64,000 nt of DNA from Podarcis erhardii (taxonomy: Eukaryota): assembly GCA_964252035.1 (NCBI GenBank), contig OZ176205.1; one strand, given 5' to 3'. Positions 14,343 to 42,594 of this stretch are shown one piece after another. Below the pieces are notes generated by a model. That model was given only the letters and a program-made list of their open reading frames with translations, did no database searches and was not told the DNA's origin. Made by a program: the position numbers and the translations under genes. Every line of letters starts with the position of its first letter. Position 1 is the stretch's first letter.

Positions 14343-14370
14343 GGCTTACCTTGGGTCACCTAAGCATATA

Positions 14371-14686
14371 CAGTGGTACCTCGGGTTAAGTACTTAATTC
14401 GTTCCGGAGGTCCATACTTAACCTGAAACTGTTAACCTGAAGCACCACTTTAGCGTACAGTGGTACTTCAGGTTACAGATGCTTCAGGTTACAGACTCTG
14501 CTAACCCAGAAATAGTACCTCGGGTTAAGAACTTTGCTTCAGGATGAGAACAGAAATTGTGCAGCAGCGGTGCAGCAGCAGCAGTGGGAGGCCCCATTAA
14601 CTAAAGTGGTACCTCCGGTTAAGAACCGTTTCAAGTTAAGAACGGACCTCCAGAACGAATTACGTTCTTAACCCAAGGTACCACTG
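14371..14686. mobile_element. Tc1/mariner-type MITEs: partial left end (14371-14455) followed by a complete, oppositely oriented copy (14458-14686)
   Basis: CAGTGGTACC termini with TA at each boundary; internal sequence matches the 56426-56667 copy. Confidence 0.85.
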
Positions 14687-14697
14687 TAATACTAAGC

Positions 14698-15231: not shown

Positions 15232-17048
15232 TACTAAGAGTAGGAAGGCAGCATGCATTTTTAATTCCATTCAGGAGTGAGAGGCTACTGCCATCCCAGC
15301 TGGCCTGAGCACGGCAAAGGAAAAACAAGCCTTTAAAACAGAGTTTGACTTACACCACCCTTCTTTGCTGGCATACGTTCCGCTGTGTTGCCAGGCCATG
15401 TGACTGAGCTGCAAGCGTTGTTTTTTTAAAAATCTCTTCTTTCCCCCTCCTGCCCCCATCACACCACTGGGACACACTTTCAGGGGACATATGCTGGCAA
15501 ACATTCTGCTGGCTGAAATCAAGGGGTGGGGACAAAACAAAACACTGCGGCTTTGTTTAACCCAGGAATGGAGAATCTGAGTCCCAGGTCCTGAATGTGA
15601 TCCACCTGATCTCTCTATCTGGCCCATGTGACTCTTCCCAGGCCGCATCCCTCTCTAACCACACTCCTCACAGCCCCTGTCCCAGGTGGTTTTGCCGGGC
15701 TGGAATGTGTCCTTAAATTGATAATGTCTCTTGTTGCCTTGATGGAGGACGCAGAGGGGTGTGTACGTAGAAACAAGCCTAAGGTACAAAAGTAAGCTTT
15801 ACATTAATTGTTCCACCCACACCACATTAGCCTTTGTCCCCACCCACCCCTGGCATGTGATGTGGCCCTTAGAAGGTTGTCCAGAATGGAATGTGGTTCT
15901 CAGGCTAAGAAGGATTTCCCTAGCCATATGTGTGTGTGCATGCATGCACATGCATGCATGGGGGGGGGGTTTCTTCTGGGTAGTTGGAGTGGAACCCCAG
16001 GTTCAGCTTGCCAACATATCTTATCTGATGCAAAATTTTAATTCATTTCTGGTGCTGAACATGCATTACTATACCCACATACCTGGAAGTCAACCCCACT
16101 GGCCTCAAGTGGGACTTGATGCTGAATTAGACGTGTGCAGGGTAGTGCTGTAAATCTCAGTTCCGAAAGTCCTGGGCTGTTCAGCAATGTGGTTTCGGGT
16201 ATTCAAGAATGTCGATGTAAAAAACAAACAAGCCCCGGAGCACAACAAACCTCTTGTATATGCAATCTTGCTCAGTCAAATGGGTTCAGAGGGAAACTCA
16301 CTGGGTTTATCGTTTTAATATATTTTCCCTGGGAGAGGGAGAAACATTCCTGAATGAATTGGTGTATATAGCGAGACGCCACACATGAAAATGCAATTGA
16401 TGACTAAGTCTGTGCGCCTCTTCCAGGAGGCCGGTTAACTCAAAAGCAACACGTGCAGCTAGTGCCTTTGTTGCACAATAGCATGATGGAGCCTGTGTAA
16501 AAAAGCTATTTATACTCTCTGATTCAGTTAACGGGAGGCTTGCTCTGATGTGCTGCCAGGGACCTTTAAAGTAGCCCATCCAAACAGATAGAGGAGGGCC
16601 TTGATGATCTTGTTTATCTAACCCTCACACATCCAAAACCCTCTTGCCCCCAAACAGAGTCATATCCTCCTAAGGCATTCCCAGAAATGCGGTCTGGAGA
16701 AACAGCTGGCTGGATTTCTCCAAACTGGTTGGCTTAGTTTTTTGTTTGCTGGGCCTCCACTAGGGATGCATGCATGAACTGTGAGTGACATGCAAAGGAA
16801 CAGACAGAGCTCCCGTTATTGAAACACTTTTAACAGTTGCACGGAACAGAGACTATTGGCAGGAACAGCCTTGTAAGGGAGACCCAAACCAGCCCTTACA
16901 AAGCTCTTTGCTGTGATTTGTTCTCAAGCCGAGAGATGGAGAGGCATATCCTGAAACATTTCAGAGGCTGCTTATTTTAATCTGCTTCAAGTAAGTGTTT
17001 GCTCTTCTCCTCCCAGAAGGTGATGGTGCAATGCCAAAAATGCACCGG

Positions 17049-17690
17049 TGTGCTGGACCCGGGGGAAAGGTACCGTGAGCGTAGTCTGAGTCCACACGAA
17101 GAGGGGCGAGGTCCGAGGCGGAGAGCCGGGCGGGGAACAGGAACGCTGGAACAGGAGGCCGAGCAGGGAACAGGAACACCGGATGGTCAGGAACAGGAGG
17201 CCGAGCAGGGAACAGGAGCACCGGGTGGTCAGGAACAGGAGGCCAAGCAGGGAACAGGAACACAGGAAGGTCCAAAGCCAACAACGACGTTGCTCCCGCA
17301 ACCTGGGACCGGGCTGACTGGGCTTTTATCCTCTTCTAAGGCCAGGGGCGGTCCCGGCCCCCAGGAGCCCCGCCTCCTCTGGCCTTAAGGCGAGCACTCC
17401 TCCTGGGAGCAACCAGTTCCCTTCGCCTCTCTGCCCTAAGCCTCTGCAGATCAGGAGAGGCCGAAGGGTTACTGGGCCCTGGAGGAGGCTCACCTGTAGC
17501 CACTGAGTCCTCAAGCCCCTCTGGGGCCTGAAGGGTTTCACCTGGGGCCAGCTCCTGGTGCTCTGCCACAGGTGCAGGCTCTTCAGCATCTAGGCCTTGC
17601 CCCAGTTCAGCCGGCCCTGGAGGCGGGGACTCCTGTGCAGGCTGGGATTCCTCTGGTTCATCCTCTGAATCGGAATCCCAGGCCATCACA
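17049..17690 (-). repeat. 3' LTR (642 bp)
   Basis: Direct repeat of 22073-22714, preceded on the minus strand by the polypurine tract. Confidence 0.97.
17148..17273 (+). repeat. Three tandem 42-bp repeats in the R/U5 part of the LTR (also 22172-22297)
   Basis: Units start at 17148, 17190 and 17232: GGAACAGGAGGCCGAGCAGGGAACAGGAACACCGGATGGTCA with few substitutions. Confidence 0.92.
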
Positions 17691-18199
17691 CCATCCCCCC
17701 TCCCAGGCCCCCCCCTCAACCGAGGGTCCGGACCCGGCTTGCCGGGGTACGTCGCATGGAACTCTCGGAGGCAGGCAGGTGCGTGGACGTTGGCCGCTGG
17801 TTCCCAGGAACGGTCCTCCGGTCCGTACCCCTTCCAGTCAATGAGATACTGCAGCTTTCCCCTGCGGTATCGGGAGTCCAGGATGCGTTCCACCTCGTAC
17901 TCAGGCTCTCCCTGAACCAACACTGGCTGCGGTCGGGGACGGTTCGGGTGGAACTCGTCGGGTGGGGCCACTGGACTCAGAAGGGACCTGTGGAAGACCG
18001 GGTGAACCTTCAGGGTTGCGGGTAACCGGAGACGGAATGCCACAGGAGAGACTTGGTCCACGATAGGGAACGGGCCGGTGAATCGGGCGTCCAACTTCCG
18101 CGAAGGTCGAGAGGGGTGGAGGTGGCGAGTGGAGAGCCAAACCAGGTCACCGACGCGAAGTTCCGGCCCCACCTGGCGGTGGCGGTCGGCCTGGGCTTT
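17336..18199 (-). CDS. In-frame continuation of pol after the TAA: integrase C-terminus (GPF motif), chromodomain, then an acidic/basic tail encoded in U3 of the 3' LTR
   Basis: Same frame as 18200-22009 (22039-18172 is divisible by 3); FTGPFPI motif; chromodomain YEVERILDSR...YLIDWKGYGPEDRSWEP; no stop until TAG at 17336-17338 inside the LTR. Confidence 0.88.
   Translation of the reverse strand, partial: KAQADRHRQVGPELRVGDLVWLSTRHLHPSRPSRKLDARFTGPFPIVDQVSPVAFRLRLPATLKVHPVFHRSLLSPVAPPDEFHPNRPRPQPVLVQGEPEYEVERILDSRYRRGKLQYLIDWKGYGPEDRSWEPAANVHAPACLREFHATYPGKPGPDPRLRGGPGRGDGVMAWDSDSEDEPEESQPAQESPPPGPAELGQGLDAEEPAPVAEHQELAPGETLQAPEGLEDSVATGEPPPGPSNPSASPDLQRLRAERRRELVAPRRSARLKARGGGAPGGRDRPWP
17694..17704 (-). 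other. Polypurine tract (plus-strand primer)
   Basis: GGGAGGGGGGA on the minus strand, 3 nt before the TG of the 3' LTR. Confidence 0.9.
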
Positions 18200-21100
18200 T
18201 TACGCTTCCTTGGCCTGGTGCAGTTGCTCCACCAAAAGCTGTTGCTGGGACTGGAGCTCTTGAAGCCACTCCGTCACCGCCGGGACCGCGGATGCCGGCA
18301 GCACATCTGGAAACAGCCGTGGATGATAACCGTAACTGGCCTGGAACGGGGTCTGCTGGGTGGACGCATTCACCGCGTTGTTGTAGGCGAACTCCGCCAA
18401 TGCCAGGTGGTCGACCCAGTCATCCTGCTGGTAGCTGCAGTAACACCGGAGGTACTGCTCCAGCACCGCGTTCGCCCGTTCCGTCTGGCCATCGGTCTGT
18501 GGGTGGTAGGCTGACGAGAGGCAGACCTCTGTCCCGAGGGTCTGGTGTAATGCTCGCCAGAACCGGGATGTGAACTGAACGCCCCGGTCGGACACCACGC
18601 GCTCAGGTAGGCCATGCAGGCGGAAGACATGCTGAAGGTACAGCTGAGCGGTTTCCTTGGCTGTGGGTACAGATGGGCAGGGGGCGCAGTGCACCATCTT
18701 GGTGAAATGGTCGGAGAAAACTAGGAGGCAGGTACAACCACGAGACGGGGGTAAGTCCACTACAAAGTCCAACGAAACCGTGTGCCAAGGGCGCGGTGGA
18801 ACTGGCAATGGCTGAAGTAGGCCGGGGGGTCGCCCGGTAGGGCCCTTGGCGCGCCGGCAGACATCACAACCAGCAACGTATCGAGCCACGTCAGCCTTCA
18901 GGCGGGGCCACCAAAACTCACGACTGACCAGATGGGTGGTCCGATACCGTCCAAAGTGCCCCGCTGCTGGGGCATCATGGGCCATCCGGAGAACCTCCAG
19001 CCGCAGTGGCCCTGGCGGGATGTACAGACGACCGTGGTGCAGCAGAAGGCCCTGATGCAGGACCAGCCCCGGATACTGTGGGCTGGACCCTTCAGCCAGC
19101 TCCTGGAGTCGTTCCTGGGCCCAAGCGTCGACCCGCTGCTGTTTCCGCACCCGAGCCTGCAGTGGCTCCGCCTCCTGGGTGGCCAGGAATGCAGCTGGAG
19201 GTAGGATCGTGGTGGGTTCTGCTTGCTGTACCGTGTCTGAGTTGTCTTCAGGTTTCCGGGACAGGGCATCCGCCTTCTGGTTCTGAGAGCTAGGGATGTA
19301 GCGGATCCGGAACTGGAACCGGGAAAAGAACAACGCCCACCGGATCTGTCTTTGGTTCAGCTTGCGGGTGGTCTGGAGGTACTCCAGGTTCCGGTGGTCG
19401 GTTCTCACCTCCACCGGATGTCGTGCCCCCTCAAGATGGTGGCGCCAGACCTCAAAGGCCACCTTGATGGCCAGTAGTTCCCGCTCCCACACAGTATAGT
19501 TACGCTCCGCTGGTAGGAGCTGGCGGGAATAGAAGGCACAGGGTAAGAGTGGCGCTTCAGGTCCATTCTGTTGAGACAAGACGGCACCGAGAGCCGTACT
19601 GGAGGCGTCGGTCTCCACCACAAAGGGTCGAGAGGGGTCAGGATGTTGTAAGATTGGCGCCCTCTGGAAACAGGCCTTCAACCCCTGAAACGCCTCCTCT
19701 GCCTCCTTGTCCCAGGAAAACGGCGTCTTTGGGCGCAGTAGCCGGGTCAACGGGGTGGTGCGATGAGCATAATCTGCGATGAAGGTCCGGTAGTAGTTGG
19801 CGAACCCCAGGAAACGCTGTAGGTCCTTGCGGTTCCGGGGTGCCGCCCATTCTCGAACCGCTGCCACCTTCCCAGGGTCCATCTGCACCCCATCTGGAGA
19901 GAGCCGGTGTCCAAGGAAGTCCACAGTCCGCTGATGGAACTCGCACTTGCTGAGCTTTGCGTACAAACGGTGCTCACGCAAGCGCTGCAGCACGGTCCGG
20001 ACATGTCCCTCATGGTGAGCCGGGTCACGGGAGTAAACCAGTATGTCATCCAAGTACACCACCACGTACTTGTCTAACAAGTCCTGGAACACGTGGTTGA
20101 TGTAGCGTTGGAACACAGCAGGCGCGTTGCACAAACCGAAAGGCATAACCAAGTATTCGAACTGCCCGTACCGGGTCCCAAATGCTGTCTTCCACTCATC
20201 CCCGGCTCGGATCCGAATCAAGTTGTAGGCCCCCCGGAGGTCCAGCTTGGTGAACACCTGTGCCCCTTGCACCCGCTCCAGCAACTCTGAGATAAGGGGC
20301 AAGGGGTACCGGTCTGGGATGGTAATTTTGTTCAGGGCTCGGTAATCATGGCAAGGGCGAAGTTCCCCACATTTCTTCTTAACAAAGAGCACTGGTGCCG
20401 CGGTAGGCGAGGTGGAAGGCCTAATGAACCCACGCTCCAGGTTCTTGCGCAAGAAGTCCTGCAAAGCCTCGCGCTCTGGCTCTGTTAGAGAATATAAGCG
20501 ACTCACTGGTAAGGGTGCTCCGGGCTGGAGGTCTATGCCGCAGTCAAAAGGTCGATGCGGCGGCAGCTGGTCTGCCCCCCGTTCCTCGAACACGTCCTGG
20601 TAGTCCTGGTACACGGCTGGGAGCGTGGGTGCTGCCTCCTCCGTGGGCGCGGCCGCCAGCGTCTCGGATTGAGCATGGGAACATGGGTCTGGGAAGTGCA
20701 CAGTCCGTTTGACCCAGTCAATCTGAACGTTGTGAGCTTCCAGCCAGTCCATCCCGAGCACGAGGGGGAACCGGGGCATAGAGGCAATGTCCAAAGTTCG
20801 CAACTCCCGGTGCTGCTGGAGACACAGGACCAGGGGCTGGGTCTCCTGAGTAACGGCTCCTGAACGTAGAAGCCGTCCGTCAATTGCTTCCACCTGGACC
20901 GGTTCTGGCTTGTTCCGAAGTGGCACCTGATGATGGGCAGCAAAAGCAGTGTCCATATAAGAACGGGTTGCTCCTGAATCCACCAAAGCATGGGTAAGAA
21001 TCCAGGGCCCACCTGGAGGGTATAAACGTACCGGAACCATAAGATGTTGCAAGTCCATTGGTGCGGGCCCATTCTGCGCTGTTTGGGACCCCCGGTAGCT

Positions 21101-22009
21101 AGGGCCATCAGCTACTGGGGGTTGGCGGTTTCCCTGCGGCTGGCGTTTCTCAGGGCAGGACCGAGCGTAGTGTCCACTTCCGCCACAGTAGAGACATAGA
21201 TTCCCCTCCCGACGCCGCACCTTCTCTGCGGGGGAAAGGCATGGCCGCACTGCCCCGAGCTGCATAGGCTCCTCCGATAACTCAGTTGTGACCGTGGGGC
21301 TGCCGGAAGAAACTGGTGCCGAGAACTGGAGGTGTCGTCGGCCCCGGGCCTGGCGACGATCCTCCAGCCGGTCGTCTATCTGTAGACTCCGTTGAATGAG
21401 AGTGTCTAGCGTGGTGGGGCGTTCCATTGTGGCCAGCTGGTCCAGTATCTCGTCCGAAAGCCCTTCGAGATACTGGTCCCGCAATGCCGAGTCGTTCCAG
21501 GTCAAGTCCTGTGCCAACAGCCGAAACTCCGTGGTATATGCGGCCACCGTGGACTCGCCCTGTTTCAACTGCCGAATCGCCCGGTTGGCTTGACTCCCTT
21601 TCTGGGGGTTGCCGAACGCGGCCTCCAAAAGATTGCAAAACCCCATATAGTCTGCCAGCAAGGGGGAGTCTTGCCTGAGTAGCGGCAACGCCCACTTGGC
21701 CGCCTGGTCCTTTAACAAACTAATCAAAAAGTGCACCTTGGTGCGGTCGTCAGGGAAGTTCCGGGCTCGCCCCTGAATATACAGCTTGGCTTGGGCGAGG
21801 AACATGGGAAAGCTGGCCGGGGCTCCATCAAATTTCTCGGGCAAAGCCACTGGGTACTTGCCAGGAGCCGGGGCGTCAGCCCCAGGAGCCGGTAGGGCTT
21901 CCAAGCGCTGCTGAAGTGCCGTAACCGCGTCGCTGAGCTGCTGCACGGTGTGAGTCAAGGCCTGGTTCTTCTGGGCCAAAGCCACCAGCGCAGCCGCCTG
22001 GTCAGCCAT
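18200..22009 (-). CDS. gag-pol: Gag-Pol polyprotein (Gag, CCHC knuckle, aspartic protease, RT, RNase H, integrase core), ending at a premature TAA
   Basis: ATG at 22009 in strong Kozak context (GCCATGG); zinc knuckle CLYCGGSGHYARSC at 21155-21196; protease LVDSGA near 20972-20986; RT YLDD at 20045-20056; RNase H VETDAS; integrase HHCC (HDAPAAGH...CDVC) and D,D-35-E core (SLDFV, SDRG, DGQTE). Confidence 0.95.
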   Translation of the reverse strand: MADQAAALVALAQKNQALTHTVQQLSDAVTALQQRLEALPAPGADAPAPGKYPVALPEKFDGAPASFPMFLAQAKLYIQGRARNFPDDRTKVHFLISLLKDQAAKWALPLLRQDSPLLADYMGFCNLLEAAFGNPQKGSQANRAIRQLKQGESTVAAYTTEFRLLAQDLTWNDSALRDQYLEGLSDEILDQLATMERPTTLDTLIQRSLQIDDRLEDRRQARGRRHLQFSAPVSSGSPTVTTELSEEPMQLGAVRPCLSPAEKVRRREGNLCLYCGGSGHYARSCPEKRQPQGNRQPPVADGPSYRGSQTAQNGPAPMDLQHLMVPVRLYPPGGPWILTHALVDSGATRSYMDTAFAAHHQVPLRNKPEPVQVEAIDGRLLRSGAVTQETQPLVLCLQQHRELRTLDIASMPRFPLVLGMDWLEAHNVQIDWVKRTVHFPDPCSHAQSETLAAAPTEEAAPTLPAVYQDYQDVFEERGADQLPPHRPFDCGIDLQPGAPLPVSRLYSLTEPEREALQDFLRKNLERGFIRPSTSPTAAPVLFVKKKCGELRPCHDYRALNKITIPDRYPLPLISELLERVQGAQVFTKLDLRGAYNLIRIRAGDEWKTAFGTRYGQFEYLVMPFGLCNAPAVFQRYINHVFQDLLDKYVVVYLDDILVYSRDPAHHEGHVRTVLQRLREHRLYAKLSKCEFHQRTVDFLGHRLSPDGVQMDPGKVAAVREWAAPRNRKDLQRFLGFANYYRTFIADYAHRTTPLTRLLRPKTPFSWDKEAEEAFQGLKACFQRAPILQHPDPSRPFVVETDASSTALGAVLSQQNGPEAPLLPCAFYSRQLLPAERNYTVWERELLAIKVAFEVWRHHLEGARHPVEVRTDHRNLEYLQTTRKLNQRQIRWALFFSRFQFRIRYIPSSQNQKADALSRKPEDNSDTVQQAEPTTILPPAAFLATQEAEPLQARVRKQQRVDAWAQERLQELAEGSSPQYPGLVLHQGLLLHHGRLYIPPGPLRLEVLRMAHDAPAAGHFGRYRTTHLVSREFWWPRLKADVARYVAGCDVCRRAKGPTGRPPGLLQPLPVPPRPWHTVSLDFVVDLPPSRGCTCLLVFSDHFTKMVHCAPCPSVPTAKETAQLYLQHVFRLHGLPERVVSDRGVQFTSRFWRALHQTLGTEVCLSSAYHPQTDGQTERANAVLEQYLRCYCSYQQDDWVDHLALAEFAYNNAVNASTQQTPFQASYGYHPRLFPDVLPASAVPAVTEWLQELQSQQQLLVEQLHQAKEA
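21066..21134 (-). other. -1 ribosomal frameshift cassette: GGGAAAC slippery heptamer plus predicted H-type pseudoknot
   Basis: G-GGA-AAC in the gag frame at 21134-21128; stem 1 CCCCCAGUAGCU/AGCUACCGGGGG (11 of 12 pairs); stem 2 GGCCC/GGGCC (loop 21101-21109 with 21066-21070). Same layout as the PEG10/sushi signal. Confidence 0.8.
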
Positions 22010-22060
22010 GGCCTCTGGCTCTTCCCGAACGCACCCCAACGAAGGGGGAGTGCGGGTGGG

Positions 22061-22070
22061 GCGGGAGCAA
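22061..22070 (-). other. Primer-binding site of the self-priming type (not complementary to tRNA CCA)
   Basis: Minus strand TTGCTCCCGC, 2 nt after the 5' LTR; no TGG start; perfectly complementary to LTR positions 22314-22323. Confidence 0.7.
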
Positions 22071-22072
22071 AC

Positions 22073-22714
22073 TGTGCTGGACCCGGGGGAAAGGTACCGT
22101 GAGCGTAGTCTGAGTCCACACGAAGAGGGGCGAGGTCCGAGGCGGAGAGCCGGGCGGGGAACAGGAACGCTGGAACAGGAGGCCGAGCAGGGAACAGGAA
22201 CACCGGATGGTCAGGAACAGGAGGCCGAGCAGGGAACAGGAGCACCGGGTGGTCAGGAACAGGAGGCCAAGCAGGGAACAGGAACACAGGAAGGTCCAAA
22301 GCCAACAACGACGTTGCTCCCGCAACCTGGGACCGGGCTGACTGGGCTTTTATCCTCTTCTAAGGCCAGGGGCGGTCCCGGCCCCCAGGAGCCCCGCCTC
22401 CTCTGGCCTTAAGGCGAGCACTCCTCCTGGGAGCAACCAGTTCCCTTCGCCTCTCTGCCCTAAGCCTCTGCAGATCAGGAGAGGCCGAAGGGTTACTGGG
22501 CCCTGGAGGAGGCTCACCTGTAGCCACTGAGTCCTCAAGCCCCTCTGGGGCCTGAAGGGTTTCACCTGGGGCCAGCTCCTGGTGCTCTGCCACAGGTGCA
22601 GGCTCTTCAGCATCTAGGCCTTGCCCCAGTTCAGCCGGCCCTGGAGGCGGGGACTCCTGTGCAGGCTGGGATTCCTCTGGTTCATCCTCTGAATCGGAAT
22701 CCCAGGCCATCACA
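22073..22714 (-). repeat. 5' LTR (642 bp)
   Basis: On the minus strand begins TGTGATGG and ends CCAGCACA; no differences from 17049-17690 found by eye, and the ORF-track translations of the two copies match. Confidence 0.97.
22348..22354 (-). promoter_or_regulatory. TATA-like box of the LTR promoter (GATAAAA)
   Basis: Lies 25 nt upstream of the putative self-priming 5' end; the same motif and spacing occur in the solo LTR (42211-42217). Confidence 0.55.
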
Positions 22715-25328
22715 ACCGGTTTGGAAACCGAATCGGTTCACTATTTTGGCCCACCCTTGACAGCTTGTCATGCAAAGCTGCACTTAGTGAAATCCCCTCT
22801 TCTCTATGACTGTTAAGGAACTGTGTCCTCCTTTCTATCTAGCTATGAAAAAGCACTCTAGGCCTGTCCCTCAGCTCACACCTAATAAAGTCTCAGATTG
22901 CCCTGAGAATCAGCTTTCACCTAAAAGCTGGAAATGATATCAACAGAGTCCCCTGAGATTGCACCCTCAGGCTTACTCTGCAGATGAAGTGCTAAGAGAT
23001 GTGAACTGGCCAAAGTCTCTCATAAAGTTTGTGGCAGAGAAGAGAGATGAACAACACTGTGGATGAACAGGGTGGCCATATGTCCTATTTTACTCCAGAC
23101 AATCCTCTACTTGAAGGGCTGTCCAGGCCAAAGTCTGGTTTGAATATATGTCTGGTTATCAAGGCCTTCCCCTTGAGGACGATAACACTTCATGCGTTTG
23201 GCAATATGGGCCCTAGTCTGTGAAAGCTTAGGTCATAACTCTGTAACTCTTGAAGGTGCCACAGGACTGTTGTTTTTGCTGCAACAATCTAGCATGGCTG
23301 TCCCTCTGAAAGATGTTGCCTCAGATATGCCAGTGTGCTTTCAGCTTTCTTAACTGATAACTTTTATGAATCAATTTATGCATTCATCTTTCACCACTCT
23401 AGGCATCCTCAAGGTGACATGCATCACAAAAATAACACCACTGAAGTACAATCCCCTCCCCAAAGCCAACAGCAATTAAACAGAGAGACTACGGCTGCAG
23501 GCACCCCATACATTTAGAGCACATTTAAAGCATATGACTTCCTCAAAAGAATCATGGGAACTGTAGTTTACCCCTCACAGAGCCAGCCCCCATGTCAAAC
23601 TACAGCTCCCATTATCCTTTGGAGGAAGTTGTGTGCTTATAAATGTATGATGTGTATGCAGCCTATTGATTTCTATAGGAGCGGTTCAACCATTCTGATT
23701 TCTCTCTCACCGAGATAGCTCAGCTTTAGCTTATAGTCGTTCTTATTTTACTAATATGTTATGGAATAAAATGGGCAAAATTATAATACACCAGAGGGGG
23801 AAACATAGCTCCCTACCTTTTGGTTTTTTAATAAGACCTTGAGCCAATAAGGTCATTTAAATTTACATCCCTTTCCCCAAAGCTGGTCCCTAGAAACCGT
23901 TCTCCCCTGCCCCACATGAATATGCATGCCTACCTATAAGGCTTCTCTTTCTCTCCCCCCGCCCCCCCTTCTCTCAGACTTCCTGACAGAATTCCTACCC
24001 ATCTGAGTGGCCTTCAAGAATGGACTGTAACTCTGCTCAGTCTAAAGTGGGGAAAGGGGGAGACAGGCTTTTCATTTAAACACCCTCCCCCCTCGATCAA
24101 GAGTAAACATTGTTCCTTTCACAAAGGAGCAGATTGTATTAGCTGGGAGATCAAGATAGAAGGAGAGACTCCTATGAGCAGAAGGCAAACGGGATGTGAA
24201 TATAAATTCTGCAAATATTTTCTTTCAGCCGCTGTGCGTAATCCCAGGAAATGGATCCAGTTTCGTTGCTGGAGGTGGGGGAGTGGGGAGCACTCTGCAT
24301 TCCAGTTGCCACAGGTTTCTTTGTGACAGTTTAAATATTTCATCCTGGGGGGGTGGGGGTGGGACTTTTCTTCAGACATTATTTAACCCTGCTCAGATCT
24401 GAAAAAAACACACAAAAGGAAGCAACAAGAAAAAATGGCGACAGGTAAAGGTTTTTGTAATGTGGGATAACAGAAGTGAAAATAGGGACACTTTTGTTTT
24501 CAGCACCCTCTTTTTTGCACAGGAAGATAGGAAGCCAGCCCTGTGTCAAGTCAAACCACTACTCCATCAACCTCCATCAACTGGAATATCTGGTTGGCCG
24601 CTGTAAGAACAGGATGCTGGAGGAGCCTTTTCTCTGATCCAGTAGGGCTTTTATTTTGTTCAGTATTGTCCACAGTGGCAGGCAGCTGCTGTCCAGTGTT
24701 TCAGATGAGGGAAATTCGCAGTTCTGCCTGGAATTGTCTGGGATTGAGTTCTGAATGCAAAGCAGATTCTCTATCACTGAGCTATGGCCTTTCCCCTCCA
24801 GAGATATAGAAAAATACAGAAATGCTGAAACACAGGAAGTATCAGTGCTTGGTCTCTCTCCACAAACCCCACCCTCAATCAGAACACGATTCCTACAAAC
24901 CAGATGTTGCCACAGGTTTCAGAGAGCCTCTTAGTTGCTCTTTCAAAAAACCGGTGAGAGGCACGATCTCGTCTTTTATTCAGGTTTCCCAGAGTTTCTC
25001 TTGAGCTGGGTGGGCTCAATTGCATTAGACCACAATGTTTCTCGAGGCCCGCTATTCCATCTGACAGAAGCCATGAGGCAGCACTGTGGTGGTGTATGTG
25101 GTACACCACATCATTAAGATGCTCTCGCTGGATCCAGAAAAGGTTTCTATCATACACTTCAAGTTACAAACGCCAGCATCTGCCAGGTCCACCAGATGGC
25201 TTCCATTAGAGAGGCCCAAAGTGGTGCCAGTCTCAGGTCTATTTGGCACATGAAAGGGGTGCATTTTATGGGGCAATGTAGCAAATAGAGTCAGAACAAG
25301 AAGTAATTATAAAGGGCTGCCACCAATT

Positions 25329-41997: not shown

Positions 41998-42594
41998 TGT
42001 GCTGGTCCCGTGGGCTAACCGAGAGGCGAGGTCCGAGTCCAGTCTGAGGTCGATGGTGCAATATGGAGGCACTCCGTAGAAGTTGAAGCTGGGTGCAGGG
42101 CAGGGAGTTGGGTGAGGTCAGGAGCTCTGGCAGAGAAGCAGGTCAGGGATCAGGCTGGAACTGACAACCAACGATGTTGCTCCCACAGCTTCGGACTGGG
42201 GCTGGCTGGCTTTTATCTCCCCCAAGGCATAGGGCGGCCCCAATCCTCAGGTGACTTGCCTCTCCTGGCCTGGAGGCGAGCACTCCTTAGTTTCCTCCGC
42301 CTCTTTGCCCTGAGCCTCTGCAGCTCAGGAGAGGCTGGAGGGTTACCGGACCCAGAGGCAACCTCAGCCTCCTCTGACGGGGCTGAGAGTGGAGCACCTG
42401 CAGGCAATAGGTCCTCCATCACCTCAGGAGCCAGAGCAGACTCAGCTGGTGCCTGCACCTGAGGATCCAGCACAGGTGAGGACCCTTCAGGCTCAGGCCC
42501 CAGCCCCGACTCAGCTGGTTCTGGAGGCGGGGAATCCTGTGCAGGCTGAGATGCCTCAGGTTCAGCATCCGAATCCAATTCCCAGGCCATTACA
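41998..42594 (-). mobile_element. Solo LTR (597 bp) of a related but distinct Gypsy family
   Basis: TG...CA termini resembling the full-length LTR (TGTAATGGCCTGGGA...CCAGCACA); 5-bp TSD ACCTG at 41993-41997 and 42595-42599; U3 alignable to the 642-bp LTR. Confidence 0.93.

Follow-up and report, generated by a model that had tools for sequence, protein, structure and literature searches.

A window of 64,000 nucleotides (nt) from the lizard Podarcis erhardii (contig OZ176205.1 of assembly GCA_964252035.1) carries on its minus strand a long terminal repeat (LTR) retrotransposon in which gag and pol form a single open reading frame (ORF), and a -1 frameshift cassette of the PEG10 type is positioned at their junction. 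Judged from its sequence, the window copy is a member of a subfamily, referred to here as A, that is derived from -1-frameshifting ancestors by the gain of one base that fused the two genes. Fusing gains of this kind have occurred repeatedly across the family and, taken as a pattern, are evidently favoured during retrotransposition, and the phase of the slippery heptamer is dispensable for fused lineages. The reading that we prefer, with slightly better than even confidence, is that programmed frameshifting has been lost convergently by recurrent one-base fusion, and that the signal in subfamily A is a recent leftover on which the lineage does not depend.

The gag-pol junction of the window copy

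The minus strand at the junction reads CAG GGA AAC CGC CAA CCC CCA GTA GCT GAT, and its features are listed in Table 1. The heptamer G_GGA_AAC is the sole in-phase X_XXY_YYZ sequence across the 1269-codon ORF. Stem 1 begins 5 nt past it and has a calculated stability of -21.7 kcal/mol, a value equalled by 7 of 860 segments of 45 nt from the internal region of the element. Frame reading and folding thus bear out a preliminary description of this DNA, which had reported an in-phase heptamer, a downstream stem, and a shared frame for gag and pol; its statement that a -1 slip would lead through PPTPSS to a TGA was also correct. Of the attributes of a PEG10-type cassette, the heptamer is in phase and the 3' structure falls within the usual 5-9 nt downstream, but pol, which lies in the -1 frame of gag in another subfamily, B, occupies the zero frame in subfamily A. 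The layout of the window copy is that of a ribosome sink, namely a long zero-frame product and a short -1 frame closed by a stop.

A pseudoknot had been proposed as well. The loop of stem 1 contains GGCCC, which is complementary to GGGCC farther downstream, and this second stem, predicted from complementarity only, is able to form in all 10 junction types considered, with little covariation. A nested fold that takes in all 79 nt of the cassette, however, is unremarkable, being no better than shuffled sequences (z -0.45, 62/200).

Natural frameshift-type relatives retain AAACCGCC, and their C run at 21117-21121 is four bases long, compared with five in the window copy. The relatives are therefore one C shorter, as had been supposed, but the gain had been assigned to the wrong site, and the one-C parental allele that was proposed, AAACGCC, has no match in the genome. 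The TGA of the -1 frame is already present in the frameshift-type relatives; it predates the fusion and hence is no adaptation to it. Descent from a PEG10/sushi-type -1 layout, which had also been suggested, is upheld, for such relatives occur in the same genome and are outgroups of the fused clade.

Recurrent fusion in the family

The genome contains at least four subfamilies that are approximately 88-92% alike. Subfamily B has the PEG10-like layout, with gag stopping six codons after the first codon of a Gly-Asn pair and pol in the -1 frame, and its age matches that of A, both being young. In a census of 80 B junctions, tallied by eye, 55 were of the frameshift type, 25 were one base longer, and none was of any other length. 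Ten of the 25 gains lie upstream of the heptamer, nine A and four G were added inside it, and two are of other kinds; the heptamer is out of phase after 16 of them. With the five types of the census and a sixth in copy L183, there are at least six types of fusing insertion, all of them between the last Cys of the zinc knuckle and the stem. At least seven combinations of type and haplotype were found among 10 sequenced fused B copies, a count that recombination may inflate and for which six of the copies were picked for being fused. Elsewhere in 31 B copies, four 1-nt insertions or deletions (indels) were seen over the remaining 4.3 kb, with the purine tract excluded. There is no measurable sign that fused B copies are younger than the frameshift-type B copies (p=0.34).

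For subfamily A, the 26-mer spanning the junction of the window copy has 127 exact matches in the genome. A tree built from 70 internal regions, from which the interrupted copies L056, L098, and L102 were left out, places the A clade within frameshift-type copies (L190 and L164), with a support of 0.98 for the clade. The first 100 of 147 matches to the A-lineage junction comprise 97 fused and three frameshift-type forms and no others, and among these listed matches none of the 97 fused junctions contains a further indel (p=2e-10). The restriction of length changes in B to one-base gains, together with the lack of any further change in A, indicates that fusion is favoured and that the site is not merely mutable. 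Subfamily A includes an older junction form with AAA, represented by 11 copies, and its divergence since the fusion is ∼1.2%. Among the 20 first-listed A copies, 18 have two LTRs, each pair at least 99.4% alike and 10 pairs identical, and nine possess the full 1624-codon frame. The ratio of nonsynonymous or stop to synonymous variants in A pol is 23:43 for shared and 150:82 for private changes (p=2e-5). This depletion of amino-acid changes among shared variants indicates that A replicates with its own Pol, and A pol is evidently under purifying selection after the fusion.

Subfamily D, to which 92 of the first 100 matches (147 in total) belong, owes its fusion to a base gained upstream of the heptamer in each of the 29 copies fetched, and its heptamer is out of phase. 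In D, another fold is better than stem 1. All three D copies checked have an open frame and LTR pairs that are 99.1-100% alike; of the older D relatives, L231 retains the stem, and two others are without the heptamer letters. Subfamily C holds both frameshift-type and fused junctions and acquired the five-C form independently. Two wall-lizard UniRef models, P0002 and P0001, show the D-type junction and the phased five-C type, respectively. Given that most B gains and the whole of D are without an in-phase heptamer, fusion does not need a slip into a stop. The signal is accordingly not conserved across the fused lineages, having gone in D and in 16 of the 25 B gains and having been kept in A and C, both of which are too young for a test of its conservation. 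A loose search for a knuckle followed by the heptamer was dominated by an unrelated abundant repeat and returned nothing informative.

The advantage of fusion would most likely be that each ribosome makes Gag-Pol, and thus more Pol per RNA; a fused RNA, having no stop 4 kb from its end, would perhaps also escape decay. Most of the capsid of A would be released from the polyprotein by the protease, as in Tf1, and Gag from the frameshifting B relatives may supplement the fused copies. As the A cassette corresponds to the working signal of B plus one stem pair, its heptamer and stems probably still send some ribosomes into the TGA, yielding a minor Gag of 300 amino acids (aa). The advantage of fusion suggests that the efficiency of this slip is probably low.

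The signal retained in subfamily A

The preliminary description had raised an inverted logic, in which Gag-Pol is the default product and slipping makes Gag. In its selected form, the -1 slip into the TGA would be the working source of free Gag in A, a reading that we regard as unlikely. What holds of it is that phase, spacer, and stem are kept in subfamily A. The phase is perfect, the 5-nt spacer is that of PEG10 (PMC2800197), and the gained base strengthens the stem. The five-C form was gained independently in C and is seen again in P0001, and the near-identical cassette must function in B, whose pol is conserved. Against this, D and the 16 out-of-phase B gains manage without the phase, the TGA is older than the fusion, and selection for fusion would point to a low slip and hence to little Gag. 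At a slip near the 60% of PEG10, the inversion would barely alter the Gag:Pol ratio.

Several observations weigh against a mere leftover. Among the A-lineage matches listed, the heptamer is kept in 97 of 97 fused junctions, which equally speaks for inverted recoding. Stem 1 is stronger in A than in B (-21.7 versus -17.8), and the five-C form, with the stronger stem, outnumbers the AAA form by 127 to 11. At so small a divergence, retention of the heptamer in A is indistinguishable from recency, and cassette conservation within A is a comparison without power, approximately one shared change being expected over ∼43 nt. The phase is kept in two of the three established fused lineages (A and C) but in only one of the six fresh B types. 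Subfamily B is still 69% frameshift-type despite frequent fusions, and most of its fused copies do not form sibling clusters, a poor fit to a simple large advantage. The 150 best matches among distant relatives comprise 67 proteins fused from knuckle to protease, 39 Gag-only proteins, and 44 unclassified ones, and the rarity of Gly-Asn after the knuckle in the fused set (3/67 versus 13/39 for Gag-only) argues against inverted recoding, but some of the fused entries may owe their fusion to invented introns in the gene models.

It is similarly doubtful that phase retention explains why A and C became lasting fused lineages and most fresh B fusions did not, a ribosome sink having evolved repeatedly. 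If true, ribosome-sink frameshifting, with the slip making capsid rather than polymerase, would here be used by a retroelement and would have arisen more than once in one family. No report of inverted gag-pol frameshifting in a retroelement, or of this lizard family, was found among the open-access articles searched.

Supply of Gag

The preferred reading, loss of frameshifting by fusion, has Gag made mainly by the fused copies themselves. Alternatively, the fused subfamilies could be Pol-rich dependants on Gag provided in trans by the frameshifting B copies in shared particles, which seems rather improbable. Subfamily B is young and coexists with the fused subfamilies, and the gag and pol trees, which are mis-rooted by the interrupted copies L056, L202, L098, and L040 and are used for groupings only, disagree for B and D. 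Such discordance implies co-packaging of subfamilies in shared particles. Purifying selection on gag was detected in B (shared 2:8 versus private 30:17, p=0.016) and was undetected in A (shared 14:14 versus private 66:34, p=0.13) and in D (p=1), a contrast that loses significance once CpG sites are removed. A Ty3 gag-pol fusion mutant is reportedly limited by capsid. There is a further precedent in BARE2, which depends on the Gag of BARE1 (PMC3735527). On the other side, the fused copies are several-fold commoner than the frameshift-type ones, D Gag is merely 83% identical to B Gag, and the ratio of nonsynonymous to synonymous rates in gag between A copies is still 0.18-0.37.

The synonymous distance between A and B is 0.13 in gag and 0.28 in pol. 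Both B and D have a mosaic gag/pol ancestry, which points to recombination between subfamilies.

Gag may also be made by way of splicing or early polyadenylation. The element contains no AATAAA or ATTAAA poly(A) signal. Five donor-like matches and one acceptor-like match delineate no clear Gag-ending intron, and no splice joints were present in the four runs examined.

Origin of the additional base

A polymerase-slippage hotspot at the structured junction, acting without selection, is a very improbable source of the +1 gains. Most gains do lengthen A or G runs, and most of the fused B copies arose independently. In A and D, however, these runs and stems have produced no further indel among the fused A junctions listed or in 29 D copies, neither -1 nor +2 changes accompany the gains in the B census, and two gains are not run extensions. 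That the base is an assembly error or a private, copy-specific lesion, as the preliminary description allowed, is scarcely credible even for a base located in a homopolymer, inasmuch as there are 127 exact copies, the junction form follows subfamily in the trees, and, as a weak point given that contigs may stop inside the run, the contigs of run X1 span 21117 at a summed depth of 2536 with zero omitted bases. In runs X5, X13, and X15 the base is missing at 21117 in approximately two-thirds of the contig depth, the remainder, from contigs ending inside the C run, being uninformative.

Structure of the element

The element extends over 5666 bp (17049-22714, minus strand), with identical 642-bp LTRs and a 5-bp target-site duplication, and we class it as a young Tf1/sushi-type chromovirus LTR retrotransposon (Ty3/Gypsy). 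The Gag-Pol ORF contains DUF4939/Ty3 capsid, CCHC, protease, reverse transcriptase, RNase H, and integrase domains (Pfam), and the protease motif is intact in the window copy. The domain order is that of chromoviruses, gag-protease-reverse transcriptase-RNase H-integrase followed by a C-terminal chromodomain, which in the window copy lies past the premature stop. A self-priming site, the mark of the Tf1/sushi elements, takes the place of a tRNA primer, and the predicted self-primer is positioned ∼25 nt downstream of the TATA-like GATAAAAG. The nearest named proteins by similarity are wall-lizard Gypsy models, PEG10, and Ustilago elements.

Table 1 Features of the retrotransposon and of its gag-pol junction in the window.
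Feature	Position	Strand	Basis or remark
5' LTR, TG...CA, 642 bp	22073..22714	-	642/642 = 100% identity with 3' LTR
3' LTR	17049..17690	-	LTR comparison
Target-site duplication, 5 bp	17044..17048	+	second copy at 22715-22719
Self-primer (predicted; transcript 5' end)	22314..22323	-	10-bp complement of primer-binding site
Primer-binding site, self-priming type	22061..22070	-	10-bp pairing with LTR sequence
Gag-Pol single ORF, 1269 aa	18200..22009	-	ATG at 22009, stop at 18202-18200
CCHC zinc knuckle, aa 272-285	21155..21196	-	sequence motif
Slippery heptamer G_GGA_AAC	21128..21134	-	in phase with ORF
Spacer, 5 nt	21123..21127	-	heptamer to stem 1
Stem 1, 5' arm	21110..21122	-	fold
C run, five C; fifth C pairs within stem 1	21117..21121	-	four C in frameshift-type relatives
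TAG, gag end of frameshift-type relatives	21112..21114	-	frame reading; here in unused +1 frame
TGA, -1 frame	21108..21110	-	slip would yield ~300-aa Gag; also in frameshift-type relatives
Stem 2, 5' arm GGCCC, inside stem 1 loop (predicted)	21102..21106	-	base-pair complementarity
Stem 1, 3' arm	21088..21100	-	fold
Stem 2, 3' arm GGGCC (predicted)	21066..21070	-	base-pair complementarity
Premature stop, integrase tail of window copy	18200..18202	-	stop here in 2/69 aligned copies
Same frame past stop: Tf2-type SH3, chromodomain, acidic tail entering 3' LTR	17339..18199	-	Pfam
Polypurine tract	17691..17715	-	sequence

The copy L199 (C6:25523950-25530550), situated 1.4 Mb away, is interrupted by a stop at the integrase codon affected in the window copy, of which it is not the sister in the tree. 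The ORF frame enters the 3' LTR for ∼107 codons (17339-17690), which adds a tail, acidic and rich in proline, behind the chromodomain; in several copies, changes in the length of the G run of the purine tract swap this C-terminal tail. Each LTR contains three 42-nt tandem units (17148-17272 and 22172-22296), the number of which differs among copies. Tandem B copies located 5 kb apart (L165/L166, C1:17127700-17139300) seemingly have one LTR in common, and a similar pair is found on contig C19. This contig (30 Mb, 2% of the genome) carries 32 of the 150 matches to the family, a concentration in keeping with a non-recombining sex chromosome. Elsewhere in the window are an old solo-LTR-like piece of the same family (42169-42594, 69% over 440 nt) and a small DNA-transposon-like element (14369-14688) with 65-nt inverted repeats, 88% complementary, that are separated by 190 nt.

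Comparison with known systems

On the usual view, retroelements require Gag in large excess, and single-ORF elements are nonetheless common. To our knowledge, the switch from frameshifting to a single ORF has rarely been caught in progress. Here one genome displays, at ∼90% identity, a frameshifting parent, at least six kinds of fresh fusion, and three established fused lineages, phased or not. These natural cassettes allow tests of what limits a frameshifting element, be it slip efficiency, RNA decay, or host restriction, and they also bear on the reverse, the reuse of a leftover signal.

The element is similar to Tf1, Tf2, and sushi-ichi in its domain order, chromodomain, and self-priming site, the last being characteristic of the Tf1/sushi group (PMC10085805). 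In Tf1 and Tf2, Gag and Pol are encoded by a single ORF and the excess of Gag is attained by degradation of Pol (PMC10085805, PMC7175516), reaching 26:1 in Tf1 (PMC7175516), and members of the group outside fission yeast are reported mostly to employ -1 frameshifting (PMC10085805, PMC7175516). Unlike that group, both layouts coexist here among subfamilies that are ∼90% identical.

PEG10/Edr has G_GGA_AAC, a 5-nt spacer, and a two-stem 3' structure (PMC2800197, PMC13622457, PMC5009743). The heptamer and spacer are the same in the lizard element, its two-stem structure is predicted, and the pol-frame peptides align (LPGPAVEGPS of the PEG10-type P0006 with PPTPVADGPS of subfamily B). In PEG10, frameshifting reaches 60% in placenta (PMC5009743). 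The difference is that pol of A is in the zero frame, such that a slip would end translation rather than extend it.

In cardioviruses, some flaviviruses, and the gamma product of dnaX, a -1 slip leads into an early stop, which in the viruses lowers polymerase relative to the upstream structural protein (PMC5009743). Subfamily A resembles these ribosome sinks in having its long product in the zero frame and a slip into an early stop; their slip, however, is measured and conserved, whereas that of the lizard element is a prediction from sequence.

The Drosophila element 1731 is a Copia-type insect element. In 1731, single-base indels at the gag-pol junction reportedly gave rise to a fused ORF that spreads to the detriment of the frameshifting form (Kalmykova et al. 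2004, as cited in PMC2582038; see also PMC5443660). The lizard family is of this known kind, in that its fused forms, derived by 1-nt indels from frameshifting ones, outnumber them. It differs from 1731 in being a vertebrate Ty3/Gypsy chromovirus with a predicted -1 heptamer-pseudoknot signal and in having some fused lineages with the signal in phase. A further difference is that many independent fusions are visible within one genome.

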